DNA of 32,000 bases from Candidatus Saccharimonadota bacterium. GTDB lineage: Archaea; Nanohalarchaeota; Nanosalinia; Nanosalinales; Nanosalinaceae. The notes below the pieces were generated by a model. That model was not told where the DNA came from. It searched no databases and saw only the letters and a program-made list of their open reading frames with translations. This document shows, piece after piece, positions 24,996 to 31,671 of the stretch; positions within the stretch are counted from its first letter, which is position 1; the number at the start of each line of letters is the position of its first letter. The translations under genes were made by a program, and so were the position numbers. The stretch lies in contig NZ_CP107255.1 of the NCBI RefSeq assembly GCF_029232205.1, positions 180,001 to 212,000 of the forward strand, read 5' to 3'.

Positions 24996-25165
24996 AGCCA
25001 TGTGGCGCATGGCTTGTGATGATAAAACTTTCAGAAGTTTTGCGGCCGAAGCAACTATGTTGCTTCTTAAAGCACTTTTTCCGCAGGAAAAGTGCGGCGT
25101 CCGGGATCAGTGACGGATGTGACGATGCGGAAGGGGGTTAGAAAGTCGGTTGCACAACAACCGAC
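24996..25165. other. cluster of four perfect stem-loops in the ATPase/integrase divergent intergenic region
   Basis: H1 24996..25014 agccatg-tggcg-catggct. H2 25048..25066 gaagcaac-tat-gttgcttc. H3 25072..25095 gcactttt-tccgcagg-aaaagtgc. H4 25145..25165 gtcggttg-cacaa-caaccgac. Stems are 7-8 bp with no mismatches. No tRNA cloverleaf could be drawn. Confidence 0.7.
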
Positions 25166-25190
25166 CGACACGCATCGTGAAACAACAACC

Positions 25191-26726
25191 ATGACAAACT
25201 ACGACAGTTCCGACATACACAGAAGACTCGAAACCCTCAAAAACAAAAACTGCGTCTCACAACGCAACGCACAACTTCTCGACGAGTTCGTAGAAGAACT
25301 CCAGGCAAGAGACGGCACAAGCGACAGCAGAACAGTCTGGTACATCTCCAAATTCTCCACAATCCTACAACAATACCTTCGAAAAGACAGGTTCGAGAAA
25401 GACACACGGATCGACAGAACACTGGAACACGACCAGCTGGACGAACTCACCAAGTCCGACCTACTCGCAGTAATCGGCGTGATGAAGAAACTGCCGATGA
25501 ACGACCTCTGGACAGAAAGAGCAGAAACCAAAGACGGAATCCTCACACCACTACAGGCTAAAGAAAGGCTTTCAGAGGAAGCATTCAACAGCCTGGAAAA
25601 GATCGACTCCGACTCCATGAAATACAAGGACTACGAACCCAGCGAAGAAATCTTCAACCAACTCCAAGACTACTCTGCAGCAAAAGTAGAAGACGGCGAC
25701 TACAAGCTTACAGAGTTCGGAGAGAACATCAAAGATGTCAGCGAACCTGAGAAGTATGCAGAGAAAACCATGAACGGGTTCAAGACCGCCTTCAAGATGT
25801 TTCTCAAACTCCGCCACCCCTTGAAGATGGACAGACCACGGAGAGTCAAGAGAATCATCCAGTCAGGAATCCTCAAAGGCAACACAGACGCAGACAGAAA
25901 AACCGAACTACACCTGTTCAGCCCCGAACAAATCTGGAAAATGGTTGAGGCAGCGAGAAACCCTAGAGACGCTCTACTGCCAATCCTATGTCTGGACGCA
26001 GGAGCCAGGAACAAGGAAATCAGGAAAGTAAAGCTCTCCGACATCGAAAAGCAGTCCGAAACATGGATAGTCGAGTTCATCGACTCCAAAAACGGAAAAC
26101 CGCCAAGAGACCTGCCACTGACACACTGTATCGAACAGCTACGGGCATGGCTCGAAAGCCACCCACGGAAAGACGATCCTGACGCTCCACTGTTCGTAAC
26201 ACTTAACGACAAGGGCGACGGAGAGAAAGGCAGCGAACTCAAGAAAGAAAACATCAACAAGATCCTGAAACGGTTAGCCAAGAGAGCAGACGTAGTAGAC
26301 AATCCAGAAACTGTCAAAGTCTACGATTTCAGGCACTCATCCGCCACATTCAGAGGCACAGAGCAGGACTGGGGAGTATCCAGGATGATGTACTGGTATG
26401 CGTGGAAAAAGCCAGACCGGGCGAAAACCTACTGCCACGAGGATAACAAGCGGATGACAGAAGCTATCTTGAAAGACAAAGGAATCAAGACCGAGGACAA
26501 CAGCAATAACTCGATGCAGATGCAGGAATGCCCACGCTGCGAGGAAAAACGACCCGCCAACGCCGAATACTGCCCAAAATGCTCTCTACCTTTGGACAGC
26601 GAGACAGCCATGAGAGACGCAGACCTCAAGAAAGCAGCCAAAATCCTCGTAGACATGAAACTTGACGAAAAAATCGAAGACGAAGAACTCAAAGGACGCC
26701 TACAACGAGTCAGAGAAGGAATCTAA
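25191..26726 (+). CDS. tyrosine recombinase / phage-type integrase with C-terminal zinc ribbon
   Basis: Catalytic-domain motifs LDAGARNKEI (Arg I), VYDFRHSSATF (HxxR-type box) and a late Tyr (RAKTYCH). C-terminal CPRC-x11-CPKC ribbon. The ORF is open from a GTG at 25092, but that start lies inside stem-loop H3 and the leader crosses H4, so I prefer the ATG at 25191 (MTNYDSS...). Confidence 0.85.
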   Translation: MTNYDSSDIHRRLETLKNKNCVSQRNAQLLDEFVEELQARDGTSDSRTVWYISKFSTILQQYLRKDRFEKDTRIDRTLEHDQLDELTKSDLLAVIGVMKKLPMNDLWTERAETKDGILTPLQAKERLSEEAFNSLEKIDSDSMKYKDYEPSEEIFNQLQDYSAAKVEDGDYKLTEFGENIKDVSEPEKYAEKTMNGFKTAFKMFLKLRHPLKMDRPRRVKRIIQSGILKGNTDADRKTELHLFSPEQIWKMVEAARNPRDALLPILCLDAGARNKEIRKVKLSDIEKQSETWIVEFIDSKNGKPPRDLPLTHCIEQLRAWLESHPRKDDPDAPLFVTLNDKGDGEKGSELKKENINKILKRLAKRADVVDNPETVKVYDFRHSSATFRGTEQDWGVSRMMYWYAWKKPDRAKTYCHEDNKRMTEAILKDKGIKTEDNSNNSMQMQECPRCEEKRPANAEYCPKCSLPLDSETAMRDADLKKAAKILVDMKLDEKIEDEELKGRLQRVREGI

Positions 26727-27679: not shown

Positions 27680-27943
27680 CTACCCATCGAATTCATCCAA
27701 TATTCTTTCCCCATTTTTTGTAAGTCTCAGGTATTTTGGCTTTCCTTCTGGGTTGATGTGTTCTAGGTAGTCTTCTTCTCGAAGTAGTTCGATATGTTTT
27801 CTTGCGGCAACATGGCTCATGTCAAGTTTATCTGCTATTTCACTTAGATATATTCCGTCCTCCTGTTTTTCCTTTACTATCTGGATTATCTCTCTGCGTG
27901 TGTCTGCGCCTTTTGAAAAGTAGAAAAGTACGGATTCATCCAT
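27680..27943 (-). CDS. winged-helix (ArsR/TrmB-like) transcriptional regulator
   Basis: 87 aa. TRREIIQIV......GIYLSEIADKLDMSHVAARKHIELLREEDYLE....EGKPKYLRLT shows the HTH-plus-wing pattern. It lies 4 nt downstream of the small membrane protein gene. Confidence 0.8.
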   Translation of the reverse strand: MDESVLFYFSKGADTRREIIQIVKEKQEDGIYLSEIADKLDMSHVAARKHIELLREEDYLEHINPEGKPKYLRLTKNGERILDEFDG

Positions 27944-27947
27944 ACCT

Positions 27948-28253
27948 TTATTCCACCTTTTCCCTGATCTTCTTCATCGATGTGTAGAGGCCATAAGAAG
28001 CATAGCTCAGGCTTGCAGCTCCAGCGACCACACCTAATTCAAGAAGAAGATTGTAAATCGGCTCTGGAATTCTAAGAAATACTTGGAGGACTTTCAGCCA
28101 TTCGTGCATTCCAAGACCTATAGCGGCAAGTAGGAAGAATACCCAGTACTTTCCTCTATTGGTTTCTTCCGAGAGTCGGTATGTATAATACACAGCTATT
28201 CCGAATAGAACTGAGGAAAGAATCACCAGAACAAGGCTGACAGTATCTACCAT
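27948..28253 (-). CDS. small 3-TM membrane protein, co-transcribed with the wHTH regulator
   Basis: 101 aa with three hydrophobic segments (VSLVLVILSSVLFGIAVYY, WVFFLLAAIGLGM, LLLELGVVAGAASLSYA). A leaderless-type TATA sits 26-31 nt upstream. Confidence 0.6.
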   Translation of the reverse strand: MVDTVSLVLVILSSVLFGIAVYYTYRLSEETNRGKYWVFFLLAAIGLGMHEWLKVLQVFLRIPEPIYNLLLELGVVAGAASLSYASYGLYTSMKKIREKVE

Positions 28254-28276
28254 AATCCTATTTTGAGAGGTTATCT

Positions 28277-28290
28277 ACAATAAAGTTACC
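28277..28290 (-). promoter_or_regulatory. GGTAAC-TTTATT promoter core for the 28253 operon
   Basis: The reverse complement of 28277..28290 is ggtaactttattgt. The TATA-like tttatt is 26-31 nt from the ATG at 28253. Confidence 0.45.
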
Positions 28291-28313
28291 TGTATGCATA
28301 CCTAATGAAACCC

Positions 28314-28331
28314 TAATGTAACCTTTTAATC
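28314..28331 (+). promoter_or_regulatory. TAATGTAACC + TTTTAATC promoter core for the 28355 gene
   Basis: The exact 10-mer taatgtaacc (28314..28323) abuts ttttaatc (28324..28331), which lies 24-31 nt upstream of the ATG at 28355. Confidence 0.5.
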
Positions 28332-28354
28332 TCTGGAAACTTCAGATAATTTAC

Positions 28355-28861
28355 ATGCATAGAGGTCTGATCAGCGGATTTAAGTCTTCTTTCGACTCTT
28401 TTTGGGCTGCAGTAGCAGTAATCGCTGTCTCAAGTATGTTTTATCTGGTTCTTACCTTGAGTAGTTTTCCAAATTATTCACTGGAGATGTTAAATGCAAG
28501 CATCCTGTATTTGGATGAGGCTTTCTTAGCTCTCAACTGGAATGTCTTCAATACCGCTGGATACGCCGGAATTTTTCTCTCTGTAGTTTACTCAGTGTTT
28601 TCAGGTGTTCTTTTAGTAAACCTTTACCAATCTCTAAAAATCAATGGCATATCTAATATCAAGAAAAGCGGAGGAATGTTCCCAGCCTTCTTGGCCGGAG
28701 GATGTGCAGGTTGCGGAGCAGGAATTCTAGGTTTCTTTGGACTTCTAGGCATAGCCTCAGCATTACCTTTCCAGGGAAACGGTCTGAAAGTCGGGAGCAT
28801 CGCTCTGATGGCGGTAGCAATATCAAGTATCGGCAATCCCGAAAAATGCTCGATAGACTGA
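28355..28861 (+). CDS. 4-TM membrane protein with intramembrane CxxC (GGCAGCGAG)
   Basis: 168 aa with about four hydrophobic segments. The only cysteines are C-A-G-C inside the glycine-rich third segment (FLAGGCAGCGAGILGFFGLLG) and one C-terminal Cys (PEKCSID). I do not recognise the family. Confidence 0.65.
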   Translation: MHRGLISGFKSSFDSFWAAVAVIAVSSMFYLVLTLSSFPNYSLEMLNASILYLDEAFLALNWNVFNTAGYAGIFLSVVYSVFSGVLLVNLYQSLKINGISNIKKSGGMFPAFLAGGCAGCGAGILGFFGLLGIASALPFQGNGLKVGSIALMAVAISSIGNPEKCSID

Positions 28862-28884: not shown

Positions 28885-28914
28885 GTAATGTAACCCTATT
28901 GTAACTTATAAAAA
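28885..28914 (+). promoter_or_regulatory. TAATGTAACC ... TGTAAC + TTATAAAAAA promoter core for the DoxX operon
   Basis: The same 10-mer taatgtaacc is at 28885..28894 and a second tgtaac at 28899..28904 abuts ttataaaaaa (28905..28914), 25-34 nt upstream of the GTG at 28939. An inverted ggttaca lies at 28930..28936. Confidence 0.5.
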
Positions 28915-28938
28915 AGACAAAGTTCCATAGGTTACACA

Positions 28939-29358
28939 GTGAGTTTATACCGCGATTTTCAGGACTTCTTAGCACAGTATCCGCTAGACCCCTACACCGT
29001 TTTCCGGACAGGATTAGGCCTAATGATACTTCTATCTGGAATCCATAAACTGGTCGATCCTGTAGTCTGGTCCAGCTACATAGCTCCAACATTCGCCGAC
29101 TTATTGAATCAGATAGATCTCCAGAACTCAGTTTTCATGCAGATCAACGGTGTTTTTGAAATCATTTTCGGCACCAGTATTCTACTCGACAAATACACTA
29201 CAGCAGCGGCAGGGGTCGTCACACTGTCTTTAGCGGGGATTATAGTGAACCTTGGACTGGCAGGAACAGGATATCTCGATATAATAATCAGGGACTTAGG
29301 ACTGCTACTGCTTTCAACAGGAGTAACTTTACAGGCAGTCCGGAGGGAGAAAAAATGA
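28939..29358 (+). CDS. DoxX-family membrane protein
   Basis: 139 aa with 4 TM helices. FRTGLGLMILLSGIHKL and the overall pattern resemble DoxX/DoxD-like proteins. GTG start, and an ATGA overlap with the next gene. Confidence 0.72.
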   Translation: MSLYRDFQDFLAQYPLDPYTVFRTGLGLMILLSGIHKLVDPVVWSSYIAPTFADLLNQIDLQNSVFMQINGVFEIIFGTSILLDKYTTAAAGVVTLSLAGIIVNLGLAGTGYLDIIIRDLGLLLLSTGVTLQAVRREKK

Positions 29359-30452
29359 CCGAAGAAATACAGATTAATCTTGATGTAAGACATGCGATAA
29401 TTGGAGTATTCATACTTGGAATCTTAACCGGCTTCCTGGCAGGATTAGTTACATCAACTCAGCTTTCAGGAGCCGAAAATGTTGCACAACAGCCTTCACA
29501 GGAAAATAATAATCCTTCTCCGCGGCCTACCGGTCAGGCTGATTCAGAAGTAGATATTAGCTTCGAAACAGAAGGGGAGCCTGTGATCGGTCAGGAGGAT
29601 GCACCGGTCACGATCGCTTACTGGGGAGACTACCAGTGTCCTTTCTGTAAACGATTCGAGCAGAGGACATTCCCTCAGCTGAAAAACAACTACATTTCAG
29701 AAGGAAAAGTAAGGTTCGTATTCAAAGACTTCCAGTTCCTCGGTCCGGATTCAAAAACCGCTGGAATAGCCTCTGAATGCGTCTGGAAACAGGTCGGAAA
29801 TTCTAACCCTGATGCCTTCTGGAACTGGCACGCCTCGATGTTCGACAACCAAGACGGAGAAAACAGCGGCTGGGGTAACAAGCAGGACATAACTTCGATG
29901 ACGCAACAAGTTTCAGGAGTAAATGCAGACCAACTTTCAAGCTGCATGGAGAACAACCAGCAGAAGTTCCAAGACGAAATGGATAAAGACAAAAGTGAAG
30001 GACAGTCTGTAGGAGTCACAGGAACACCAGGATTCGTAATATACAAGACAGGTTCAAACTCTGGACAGCAGATTACCGGTGCACAGCCATTCAGCCGGTT
30101 TGAATCAGTTATCAGCCAAGTTCAAAACTCTGATCCAGGAACCGAGACAACAGGAGAAAACGAACAGGTTGACAAGACCATACAAGTCTCAGGGACAGAG
30201 TACAGTTTCTCACCTTCCACAATAAAAGTCGGAAAAGGCCAGACTGTGGAAATAGAATTTAGCAACACAGGCAGTATTCCCCACGACATGAAGATTCCAA
30301 GCCTTGGAACAGGTTCAAAAGTTATACAGCCAGGTCAAACAGACTCCTTCACATTTACAGCACCAAAATCAGGAACCTTCCCTATAAGCTTCGAATGCAG
30401 CCTCCCAGGTCACGCAGCGAACGGGATGAAAGGACAGCTAAAGACAGGTTGA
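29355..30452 (+). CDS. membrane-anchored DsbA-like thiol:disulfide oxidoreductase fused to a C-terminal type-1-copper cupredoxin domain
   Basis: N-terminal TM anchor (AIIGVFILGILTGFLAGLV). Thioredoxin-fold DsbA/BdbD-like domain with WGDYQCPFCKRF active site and cis-Pro loop VGVTGTPGFVI. After a linker comes a cupredoxin with candidate ligands IPHDM ... FECSLPGHAANGM (His, Cys, His, Met). Confidence 0.85.
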   Translation: MTEEIQINLDVRHAIIGVFILGILTGFLAGLVTSTQLSGAENVAQQPSQENNNPSPRPTGQADSEVDISFETEGEPVIGQEDAPVTIAYWGDYQCPFCKRFEQRTFPQLKNNYISEGKVRFVFKDFQFLGPDSKTAGIASECVWKQVGNSNPDAFWNWHASMFDNQDGENSGWGNKQDITSMTQQVSGVNADQLSSCMENNQQKFQDEMDKDKSEGQSVGVTGTPGFVIYKTGSNSGQQITGAQPFSRFESVISQVQNSDPGTETTGENEQVDKTIQVSGTEYSFSPSTIKVGKGQTVEIEFSNTGSIPHDMKIPSLGTGSKVIQPGQTDSFTFTAPKSGTFPISFECSLPGHAANGMKGQLKTG

Positions 30453-30458
30453 GAGATC

Positions 30459-31046
30459 GTGGGGGAATTTGAATGTGACAAGTGCGATAGAGGCTTCAGT
30501 TCCGAGGAGGCGTTGGAGCAGCATAAACAGGACTACGATCACAGCAAGCTGAAGGAATGCTCGAAATGCGGTGAAAAATTCAGATCCAAGGAAAAATACA
30601 GTGAGCACAAGAAAACGCATTGGGGTCCGGTACGAAGACACATCTTCGCTGACCATTATGTTTTAGGAGGACTAGCTCTGATAGGCCTTGTAATCGCGCT
30701 GGGACTGGGCTTAAACGCACTTCCTTCTGGCGGCTCCAGTCAAGAATCCATACCTGAAGATGTAGGCCAGACTGTCAGTATAACCGGAGGAGATTTCTAC
30801 TTCAATCCTTCCACGAGCCGGATAAACGATACAGGCAAGATAAGAGTGAGGTTTACCAATCAGGGAGGTGTTAGTCACAATCTCAGACTGACCGGTATCG
30901 GGAAGGGGACAAGTGTCATCCCGCCAGGCCAATCTGAAGCATTCACCTTCAACGCTTCAAAAGACGGGGAAACACCTATAGCGTTTGAATGCACGCTACC
31001 AGGTCATGCCGAAAGAGGCATGGTAGGAAGATTCACTTCAACATAG
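30459..31046 (+). CDS. two N-terminal classical C2H2 zinc fingers + single TM + extracytoplasmic cupredoxin domain
   Basis: ZF1 CDKC-x12-H-x5-H (FECDKCDRGFSSEEALEQHKQDYDH). ZF2 CSKC-x12-H-x3-H (KECSKCGEKFRSKEKYSEHKKTH). A basic stretch is followed by a TM helix (VLGGLALIGLVIALGLGL). The cupredoxin carries VSHNL ... FECTLPGHAERGM and is a paralog of the C-terminal domain of the previous gene. GTG start. Confidence 0.8.
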   Translation: MGEFECDKCDRGFSSEEALEQHKQDYDHSKLKECSKCGEKFRSKEKYSEHKKTHWGPVRRHIFADHYVLGGLALIGLVIALGLGLNALPSGGSSQESIPEDVGQTVSITGGDFYFNPSTSRINDTGKIRVRFTNQGGVSHNLRLTGIGKGTSVIPPGQSEAFTFNASKDGETPIAFECTLPGHAERGMVGRFTST

Positions 31047-31059
31047 AGGAGAACAAAAC

Positions 31060-31671
31060 ATGGAAGAATGCAAATACTGTGATAAAGAATTCGATAAAAA
31101 GAGGAGAAAGCTTCAGCACGAATTGAAAGAACACGAGGGAGAAATGTCTAGCCATGACAGAGATGGGAAAAAGAGAGAATTAAGCAAGTTGAGAGAGAAG
31201 GATAAGACGGCGAAACAGAAACGGAATAGGAAGATAATCTACAGCGGGATTGGTCTAGTATTGCTAGCTGGCCTGGTTTTCGGAGGCTACCAGGTTTCCC
31301 AATACGCTGATTCTCTACAGCCTGAGAAAGATGCCGATAAAGGAATAGGAACTCCTATTCACTGGCACGCAAATTACCAACTCACAGTCTGCGGAGAAAA
31401 CCAGATCCTCCGAGGAGGACCTACTAGAGCACATACACACGGTCAGAGCCAGTTCCATCTTGAAGGAGTGAGAACAAGCGAGGAACAGGCAACTTTAGAT
31501 GGGATTGTAGATAGTTTGGGCGGCCAACTGGAAAATAATTCAGTGATGGGTCAAACCAGCTGCAACGGAGAACCGGCTGAACTCACAGTTAAGGCGAATG
31601 GCCAGGAACTTGAAAATCCGCTGACTTACATCCCTAGGGATGGCGATAACATAGTAATCAGGTTAGAATGA
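31060..31671 (+). CDS. N-terminal C2H2 zinc finger + single TM + extracytoplasmic His/Cys-rich domain
   Basis: CKYC-x12-H-x4-H (ECKYCDKEFDKKRRKLQHELKEH), a long Lys/Arg-rich linker and a TM helix (IYSGIGLVLLAGLVFGGY). The outside domain has IHWHANYQLTVCGE, RAHTHGQSQFHLEG, a second Cys (TSCNGEP) and a tail LTVKANGQEL..P..YIPRDGDNIVIRLE. Confidence 0.7.
   Translation: MEECKYCDKEFDKKRRKLQHELKEHEGEMSSHDRDGKKRELSKLREKDKTAKQKRNRKIIYSGIGLVLLAGLVFGGYQVSQYADSLQPEKDADKGIGTPIHWHANYQLTVCGENQILRGGPTRAHTHGQSQFHLEGVRTSEEQATLDGIVDSLGGQLENNSVMGQTSCNGEPAELTVKANGQELENPLTYIPRDGDNIVIRLE

Follow-up and report, generated by a model that had tools for sequence, protein, structure and literature searches.

How does a classical C2H2 zinc finger, the largest transcription-factor domain of eukaryotes, come to sit on the inner face of an archaeal membrane with a copper protein on the other end of the same chain? 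The question is raised by two adjacent genes, here called A and B, near the 3' end of a 32,000-nucleotide stretch of nanohaloarchaeal DNA (the window; contig NZ_CP107255.1, positions 180,001 to 212,000), from a group of archaea with tiny genomes that live attached to other cells. We argue that A and B are outside-facing effectors of copper and thiol-redox chemistry in metal-defence islands, and this much we regard as established. More tentatively, we suggest that the finger serves the outside effector as a docking head, in the cytoplasm and stabilised by zinc, a reading that we favor but would not yet call probable. A sequence-only reading of the same DNA had cast the two proteins as one-component membrane regulators of the ToxR/CadC type, with docking held in reserve; we keep its layout and turn its order of preference around.

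The plainest form of the question is whether the fingers are genuine. A six-frame scan of the window returned exactly three C2H2 motifs, all of them in A and B, where 0.07 were expected by chance (300 shuffles, maximum 1-2), and in all three a phenylalanine stands three residues after the second cysteine. Two lie in A, C6-x2-C9-x12-H22-x5-H28 (finger 1, 30474-30542, + strand) and C34-x2-C37-x12-H50-x3-H54 (finger 2, 30558-30620, + strand), and one lies in B, C4-x2-C7-x12-H20-x4-H25 (31069-31134, + strand), just as the sequence-only reading had them; each keeps within the classical ligand spacing C-x2-4-C-x12-H-x3-5-H. That reading had named poor conservation of the cysteines and histidines as something that could undo it; every one of these ligands is at least 90% conserved in 10 homologs of A and 20 of B. 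Conservation in homologs and the shuffles together rule out motifs arisen by chance.

The evidence is not equally good for every finger. Both fingers of A keep the classical hydrophobic core, F-x5-L-x2-H, both are modelled by AlphaFold2 as beta-beta-alpha units (pLDDT, the model's own confidence score, 70-79), and in Pfam A scores above gathering for both zf-C2H2_4 (29.6 against 27) and zf-C2H2 (28.1 against 25.2). A profile of the two-finger A-type module aligns without a gap over 53-54 residues with eukaryotic fingers in tandem (Aart, ZNF568 and a consensus finger), and the 28-residue finger period is therefore canonical; what is peculiar to the module is that the distal histidine of finger 1 is displaced by two residues and that the fingers are joined by a 5-residue linker, SKLKE. 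Finger 1 is acidic, with a near-invariant stretch ALxQHxxDYDHS, and the helix of finger 2 runs without a break into the juxtamembrane and transmembrane (TM) helix (residues 44-64, then 66-87, in the AlphaFold2 model). B's own finger is weaker evidence than A's. The profile check that the sequence-only reading had proposed comes out in favor of A, and leaves B alone under the Pfam threshold (zf-C2H2_4, 13.6 bits); B and its close relatives have the register F-x6-L-x1-H, where distant B relatives keep the classical one, and AlphaFold2 gives the finger region of B a helix only, with no beta-beta-alpha unit. It is the family that speaks for this finger: a profile built from 34 fingers of the family picks out solved classical C2H2 fingers and also finger 1 of A (hhalign 98.6%, E 7.6e-16), and H-x4-H is kept in 61 of 62 B-family fingers. 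Each finger would bind one Zn(II). On one metagenome contig (L004:9394-9987), CSKCVEKF replaces CSKCGEKF, a Gly-to-Val change at a glycine of finger 2 that is otherwise at least 90% conserved.

What, then, are the fingers attached to? Gene A (30459-31046, + strand) is an open reading frame of 195 amino acids with a GTG start, 6 nt past the stop of the upstream gene, and it encodes a predicted bitopic protein in which the two fingers are followed by one TM helix (30657-30719, + strand; residues ~67-87; Kyte-Doolittle 19-mer score 2.33) and a cupredoxin (30765-31043, + strand) predicted to lie outside the cytoplasm. This last domain matches Pfam Copper-bind (26.6 against a threshold of 21.2), is modelled as a confident beta domain (pLDDT ~90), and carries the type-1 copper ligands H140, C178, H183 and M188, which are invariant in the alignment of A homologs; by fold and by its His, Cys, His, Met ligand set, A is a type-1 (blue) copper cupredoxin, in agreement with the outside cupredoxin and the copper setting first proposed for it. 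There are 10 full-length homologs, with identity down to 42%, all from nanohaloarchaeon-like sources. One protein 93% identical to A (P0001) is labelled Candidatus Halalkalibacterium sp. by NCBI; it lies on a 2.4-kb contig and is probably a mis-binned nanohaloarchaeal fragment.

The orientation of the two proteins is read from hydrophobicity and charge. Each has one strongly hydrophobic 19-mer, and lysines plus arginines in the 25-residue flanks number 7 on the N side against 0 on the C side in A, and 13 against 2 in B, which bears out the basic flank, single helix and outside domain that had been proposed. When 72 finger proteins from the various families are compared, all but two (70) show a single hydrophobic segment, and the N-side excess of positive charge is found in 66 of those 70. 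Cupredoxin and DsbA-type domains must sit outside the cell. Because of this requirement and of the charge bias, we place the fingers in the cytoplasm and rule out an outside location; A and B are thus predicted to be single-pass proteins, N-terminus in and C-terminus out.

Gene B (31060-31671, + strand; 203 amino acids) starts 13 nt past A. Its product is 100% identical to a Candidatus Nanohalovita haloferacivicina protein, and the close homologs, about 20 in number, likewise come from nanohaloarchaeon-like sources throughout. Behind the single finger comes a cytoplasmic tail (31144-31233, + strand) with the motif M-S-S-H32-D-R, whose H32 is invariant in the homolog alignment, and then a charged stalk helix of ~30 residues (AlphaFold2 helix 31-71), a predicted TM helix (31234-31296, + strand; residues ~59-79; Kyte-Doolittle score 1.91) and a predicted extracytoplasmic domain (31342-31668, + strand; pLDDT ~90). 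The tail motif, [LM][ST][SKG]H[ED][KR], stands 27-37 residues ahead of the TM helix in 53 members of the B family, with or without a finger, and appears to cap a long, rigid, charged stalk. A longer form, [LM][ST][SKG]H[ED][KR]xx[LM]K[KR], is seen in B and in family proteins P0056-P0204.

The outside domain of B had been called His-rich, and it is indeed built on histidines, although it is a discrete domain with four invariant ones and not a low-complexity histidine stretch. H101, H103, H125 and H133 are invariant in 71 diverse family members and C168 is at least 90% conserved; the pattern, downstream of a single TM helix, consists of HxH and HxE on two different strands and H(T)H in a loop. 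Neither B alone nor the members of its family matched any Pfam family over this domain, a B profile searched against the sequences of the PDB found nothing significant, and comparison of folds gave weak, beta-grasp-like matches only. The family is large, at least 505 representative clusters at E<=1e-3 in an exhaustive profile search, and its named members are Aenigmarchaeota and Diapherotrites. Among the 150 best relatives of B, 42 (~28%) bear a C-x2-C-x12-H-x4-H finger at the N-terminus, for the most part of classical register, and 107 are finger-less; the remaining one (P0130) has, exactly where the finger should be, a Pfam HMBD heavy-metal-binding domain (E 3.3e-13). Some of these relatives have a cupredoxin at the C-terminus as well (P0201: finger, TM helix, 4-His domain, cupredoxin), and P0179 joins a B-type finger, stalk and TM helix to a DsbA-like domain.

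The sequence-only reading had called for a survey of archaea for C2H2 fingers joined to TM helices, and such proteins do exist elsewhere, with cupredoxin, DsbA, redoxin or 4-His domains. We scanned GTDB species genomes for the finger-1 motif, blind to whatever domain lay downstream, and obtained three loci: an ortholog of A in strain M3_22, a protein of 290 amino acids with two fingers, TM helix and DsbA-like domain (L008:3001-3873; an uncultured archaeon, 59.5% GC), and one of 250 amino acids with two fingers, TM helix and redoxin domain (L009:1944-2696; an Asbonarchaeaceae metagenome-assembled genome, MAG). Pfam confirms the outside domains of the latter two, whose fingers pass the zinc-finger thresholds as well. 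A fourth case, protein C (L005:5084-6211; 375 amino acids), has one finger, nearly identical to finger 1 of A, then a TM helix, an AhpC/TSA redoxin with a CPSC motif, and DUF3105. The finger-TM cassette is therefore carried by cupredoxin (A), DsbA-like (L008, P0179), redoxin (L009), redoxin plus DUF3105 (L005), 4-His (the B family) and 4-His plus cupredoxin (P0201) proteins; every C2H2 motif in ~150 kb of fetched loci precedes a TM helix at a fixed distance, and in the domain-blind scan the A-type finger turned up on exported domains of copper or thiol-redox chemistry and on no others. Other searches were less telling. Pattern scans for the finger motif gave two irrelevant matches on AT-rich contigs in metagenomes and nothing in viral sequences, tblastn against plasmids gave distant Bacillus cupredoxins only, and a homolog search with a finger profile returned short, weak fragments and missed known members, so it is uninformative and no evidence of absence.

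The company that A and B keep is of one kind. Their operon has a conserved order—Cys-pair membrane protein, DoxX, DsbA::cupredoxin, A, B, AliA/B—of which the window holds all but the last, the locus being cut by its 3' end; the continuation past B was read from metagenome contig L005, whose genes are identical. The gene directly upstream of A (29355-30452, + strand; Pfam, synteny) encodes a TM helix, a DsbA-like thioredoxin domain (CPFC) and a cupredoxin, with no finger, and A is a paralog of its cupredoxin half. Before it stands a DoxX-family membrane protein (28939-29358, + strand; Pfam, synteny), first gene of the unit DoxX, DsbA::cupredoxin, A and B. Farther upstream is a 168-residue membrane protein (28355-28861, + strand) with GGCAGCGAG in a TM helix (a CxxC pair) and an invariant C-terminal cysteine, which matched no family in Pfam or NCBIfam; it belongs to an unannotated family of ~170 residues (also L005:6227-6739, L008:3874-4404, L009:2696-3211 and L012:7283-7795) defined by CxxC or CC inside a TM helix and that same cysteine. 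Its gene lies directly 3' of the gene for a finger-thioredoxin-fold protein in three of three cases (L005, L008, L009), and these Cys-pair proteins may be partners of a MerT-, DsbB- or CcdA-like kind. Divergent from all of these is a pair (27680-28253, - strand) made up of a 101-residue membrane protein (mem101, 27948-28253) and an 87-residue winged helix-turn-helix (wHTH) regulator (HTH87, 27680-27943; Pfam HTH_11, HTH_20).

Conservation of the operon spans three genomes (Nanohalovita, which the window matches, strain M3_22 and a Nanosalina MAG): the core, HTH87/mem101 | (Cys-pair protein) - DoxX - DsbA::cupredoxin - A - B, is kept in the latter two, the HTH87/mem101 pair is found in both L012 and L013, and the M3_22 and Nanosalina surroundings include PadR, P-type ATPases, DUF305, DUF411, DUF302, ArsP+YHS and an extra cupredoxin. 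Past B, contig L005 has AliA/AliB (DUF63), ArsR, a MerA-like reductase, finger protein C and a 170-residue membrane protein with LLCCSPLLP, the last four forming a mercury-resistance-like module (L005:3293-6739); the reductase has 487 residues, the active site GGTCVNVGCVPSK, a C-terminal ACCVE and no N-terminal metal-binding domain, and the gene of protein C sits between it and the CC membrane protein. The AliA/AliB homolog (L005:2121-2984; also L012:11041-11904) is translationally coupled, beginning 4 nt before B's stop, and recent work has shown that proteins of its family take part in the lipidation of archaeal lipoproteins (PMC12462473). Distant B homologs adjoin PadR, P-type ATPase and DUF305 genes, and the contexts of the B family as a whole include multicopper oxidase, MerT/HMA, TRASH, YHS-HMA ATPase, DsbA, redoxin, DsbD_TM and cupredoxins. 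The same copper and thiol setting is thus seen across Nanohaloarchaeota, Aenigmarchaeota, Diapherotrites and further contigs, and the setting of A and B is a copper/mercury/thiol-redox island.

Three observations on the island stand by themselves. A 544-residue gene of the phage-integrase family (25092-26726) lies ~1 kb upstream of its core, and a search of the window for tRNA genes found none. The Nanohalovita genome paper lists no predicted genomic islands in the genome, and the A and B genes go unmentioned there (PMC10266531). Divergence between Nanohalovita and M3_22 is uneven along the operon (28254-28861 compared with L012:7182-7795): by eye, the divergent promoter is ~90% identical, the 168-residue protein 83%, A only 59% and B 71-72%.

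What could a finger be doing in such company? On the reading that we favor, A and B would display copper-binding domains at the cell surface, a blue-copper cupredoxin in A and the 4-His domain in B, and through the finger the outside effector would be held to partner machinery of these islands at its cytoplasmic face, the candidate partners being a copper P-type ATPase, the Cys-pair membrane proteins or the local wHTH repressor. The finger would then be a docking or sensing head and not a head that reads DNA. Because it is optional in the B family, and in P0130 has been exchanged for HMBD, we take it to be an accessory head and not the core function. Finger 1 has a mean net charge of -3.3, and at the DNA-contact positions -1, 2, 3 and 6 it is invariantly S, E, A and Q; an acidic finger that is nevertheless near-invariant across paralogs suggests one conserved ligand other than DNA. 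In 8 of 11 cases finger 2 has glutamate at position 6, and its sequence differs from ortholog to ortholog where the promoter element is the same. Catalytic or ligand motifs (CPSC, type-1 copper) are intact in the outside domains, and wHTH regulators (HTH87, ArsR, PadR, HxlR) stand in or beside most finger loci. Finger 2 of A set against the membrane and the finger of B held out on a stalk of ~30 residues are both geometries that, in the models, would suit the cytoplasmic domains of membrane proteins. The motifs with their conservation, the signals of topology, the identities of the domains, their modular use and the genomic setting are observed; zinc binding, the partner and any signalling are what we infer. 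The sequence-only reading's fallback, docking, stands in the same way: it fits the data better than a regulator does, with the act of docking itself a supposition.

Several points weigh against docking. The partners are candidates only; tandem fingers with the canonical 28-residue period would, by sequence, fit nucleic-acid binding equally well; and the finger-less DsbA::cupredoxin paralog in the same operon would also fit A as a sensor copy. Few loci were sampled, some of them reached by way of the A and B families themselves, and the survey is incomplete, since the search with the finger profile alone missed known members. Nor is PadR the correlate of the finger that it appeared to be, the two being often neighbors but not always: PadR and finger go together in L001, L002, L014 and L015, and the finger-less L016, L017 and L018 lack PadR, which is suggestive, but in L019 a finger occurs with no PadR, and so few loci cannot carry the point.

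The idea with which the locus was first read, that the outside domain senses copper or redox state and the tethered fingers bind island promoter DNA or RNA, survives best among the alternatives, and we consider it unlikely. Much about the proteins invites it: a cytoplasmic domain of nucleic-acid type, one TM helix and an outside domain; two canonical fingers in the A-type module, at the 28-residue period of DNA-binding arrays; a basic helix after the finger of B; a constant head on variable outside domains, as is typical of one-component sensors; and the paralogy of A with half of its finger-less neighbor. A preprint also infers that C2H2 fingers are DNA-binding domains in some archaeal TniQ proteins (10.1101/2025.07.27.667033). 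Its N-in, single-pass layout is indeed what we predict, and it is the regulatory role that we do not favor, given a finger that is missing from more than two-thirds of the best B relatives, acidic in finger 1 of A and, in finger 2, variable between orthologs. Finger 2 of A has no linker to the membrane, the catalytic CPSC or type-1 copper motifs are retained outside, and an island this small would hardly need three finger proteins as well as two wHTH regulators.

A further argument for DNA lies in the promoters. An operator-like tandem repeat, TGAAACCCTAATGTAAC (28306-28322, + strand), stands beside a TATA-like box, and another, TGTAACCCTATTGTAAC (28889-28905, + strand), abuts TTATAAAAAA upstream of the DoxX-A-B unit. 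The conserved direct repeat has the form TGWAAC-N5-TGTAAC, directly 5' of the TATA-like box at each of the two + strand promoters; the window has two copies of it where 0.15 are expected, and it recurs at the orthologous sites in L012 and L013. Its 6 bp would be the footprint of two fingers. A related copy lies on the - strand around 28266-28293, and there is an inverted half-site at 28931-28936. We looked for the repeat in front of the A-type genes elsewhere (L005, L009) and found it absent; as a motif common to all A-type loci it must be rejected, being confined to loci with the HTH87/mem101 pair, and for that reason it gives no ground to name the finger, in particular, as the protein that binds it. 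TGWAAC-N5-TGTAAC is probably the operator of HTH87, to judge from where it occurs. The bolder proposal, that a two-finger module of the DPANN archaea binds TGTAAC repeats as the DNA head of a transmembrane copper and redox switch, is one that we hold to be distinctly doubtful.

A third possibility is that the finger is a cytoplasmic metal-binding domain, in the manner of HMA, HMBD, TRASH or YHS, in which Cys2His2 would serve to bind Cu(I) or Hg(II), or to sense them, and so tune its own protein or pass metal to MerA or a pump. The substitution in P0130 at exactly the finger's position is one point for it, and the loci are, after all, copper and mercury islands, in one of which protein C sits between a MerA-like reductase that lacks its N-terminal metal-binding domain and the CC membrane protein. 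The number of fingers varies (0, 1 or 2), and the metal-binding domains of P1B ATPases vary in number too. The substitution is a single case, however; the conserved F/L hydrophobic core and the beta-beta-alpha models speak for a zinc site of the ordinary, structural kind; a regulatory target for a single-pass protein is not evident; and no classical C2H2 finger is known to us to act in copper or mercury trafficking. We judge the idea improbable. Least of all do we credit a generic structural anchor, a folded N-terminal domain that fixes the N-in orientation or steadies the signal-anchor helix with no specific ligand, which the optional finger of the B family and the common prokaryotic layout of N-terminal zinc-binding domain plus TM helix might recommend, but which sits very badly with a finger 1 that hardly changes across paralogs with different outside domains, with a cassette found only on copper and thiol-redox domains (even in the domain-blind scan) and with a DsbA::cupredoxin of the same operon that anchors without any finger.

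Why should one care? The domains are all known; it is their combination, its spread in DPANN archaea and the families that accompany it that appear to be new. A 2025 preprint (10.1101/2025.07.27.667033) describes C2H2 fingers as all but missing from bacteria and little characterised in archaea, and a search of the literature on membrane-anchored archaeal C2H2 fingers found no paper on, or description of, the architecture; databases name these proteins "C2H2-type zinc finger protein," "plastocyanin" or "hypothetical." What emerges is a conserved and portable cytoplasmic C2H2 cassette on single-pass proteins with copper or thiol-redox outside halves, together with three uncharacterised families or motifs that likewise belong to loci of copper/mercury resistance, namely the 4-His domain, the membrane proteins with a Cys pair and the motif of the stalk. 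Should the fingers bind DNA, we would have before us a novel type of transmembrane gene switch, a eukaryote-type domain in a ToxR-style archaeal device; should their task be docking to proteins or sensing metals, copper chemistry at the surface would be coupled to the cytoplasm in a novel way. Being small, the proteins are amenable to work in vitro.

It is useful, finally, to set A and B beside the systems that they resemble. The outside half of A shares its H, C, H, M ligands and its Pfam Copper-bind match with halocyanins, plastocyanin and CopI-like cupredoxins, but its scores fall so far under the NCBIfam equivalog cut-offs (CopI 30.2 against 280; halocyanin 15.7 against 93.8) that it is a member of neither the CopI nor the halocyanin family. 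Haloarchaeal halocyanins are anchored by a lipobox or a signal peptide, whereas the anchor of A is an uncleaved TM helix with cytoplasmic fingers. The fingers of A share C-x2-C-x3-F-x5-L-x2-H, the beta-beta-alpha unit and the 28-residue period with the tandem fingers of Zif268 and Krueppel, from which A departs in the H-x5-H of finger 1, in SKLKE in place of the TGEKP linker, in an acidic recognition helix and in its tether to the membrane. Small cytoplasmic modules with cysteines, variable in number, also occur on copper and mercury membrane proteins as the HMA, HMBD, TRASH and YHS domains of P1B ATPases and MerT-HMA proteins; their folds and motifs differ from those of C2H2 fingers, for which no metal-trafficking role is known to us.

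Two other likenesses are of layout. ToxR, TcpP and CadC of bacteria have, like A and B, a cytoplasmic N-terminus of nucleic-acid type, a single TM helix and an outside domain, with the N-terminus in. Theirs, however, is an OmpR-type winged helix with a long linker and proven DNA binding, and we looked in A and B for a wHTH match (Pfam, NCBIfam) and found none; the archaeal proteins have instead one or two C2H2 fingers, no linker in A, a finger that is optional, and outside domains of catalytic copper or thiol type. The zinc-binding anti-sigma factors (ZAS, zf-HC2) likewise have a cytoplasmic N-terminal zinc domain, one TM helix and an outside domain. They differ in their helical HxxxCxxC motif and in binding sigma factors, which archaea lack; neither that motif nor a zf-HC2 Pfam match was found in A or B, and no relation in sequence is seen. 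Even so, the zinc head of a ZAS protein binds a protein, a transcription factor, and not DNA, which makes it the closest analogue of the docking that we tentatively propose for the fingers of A and B.

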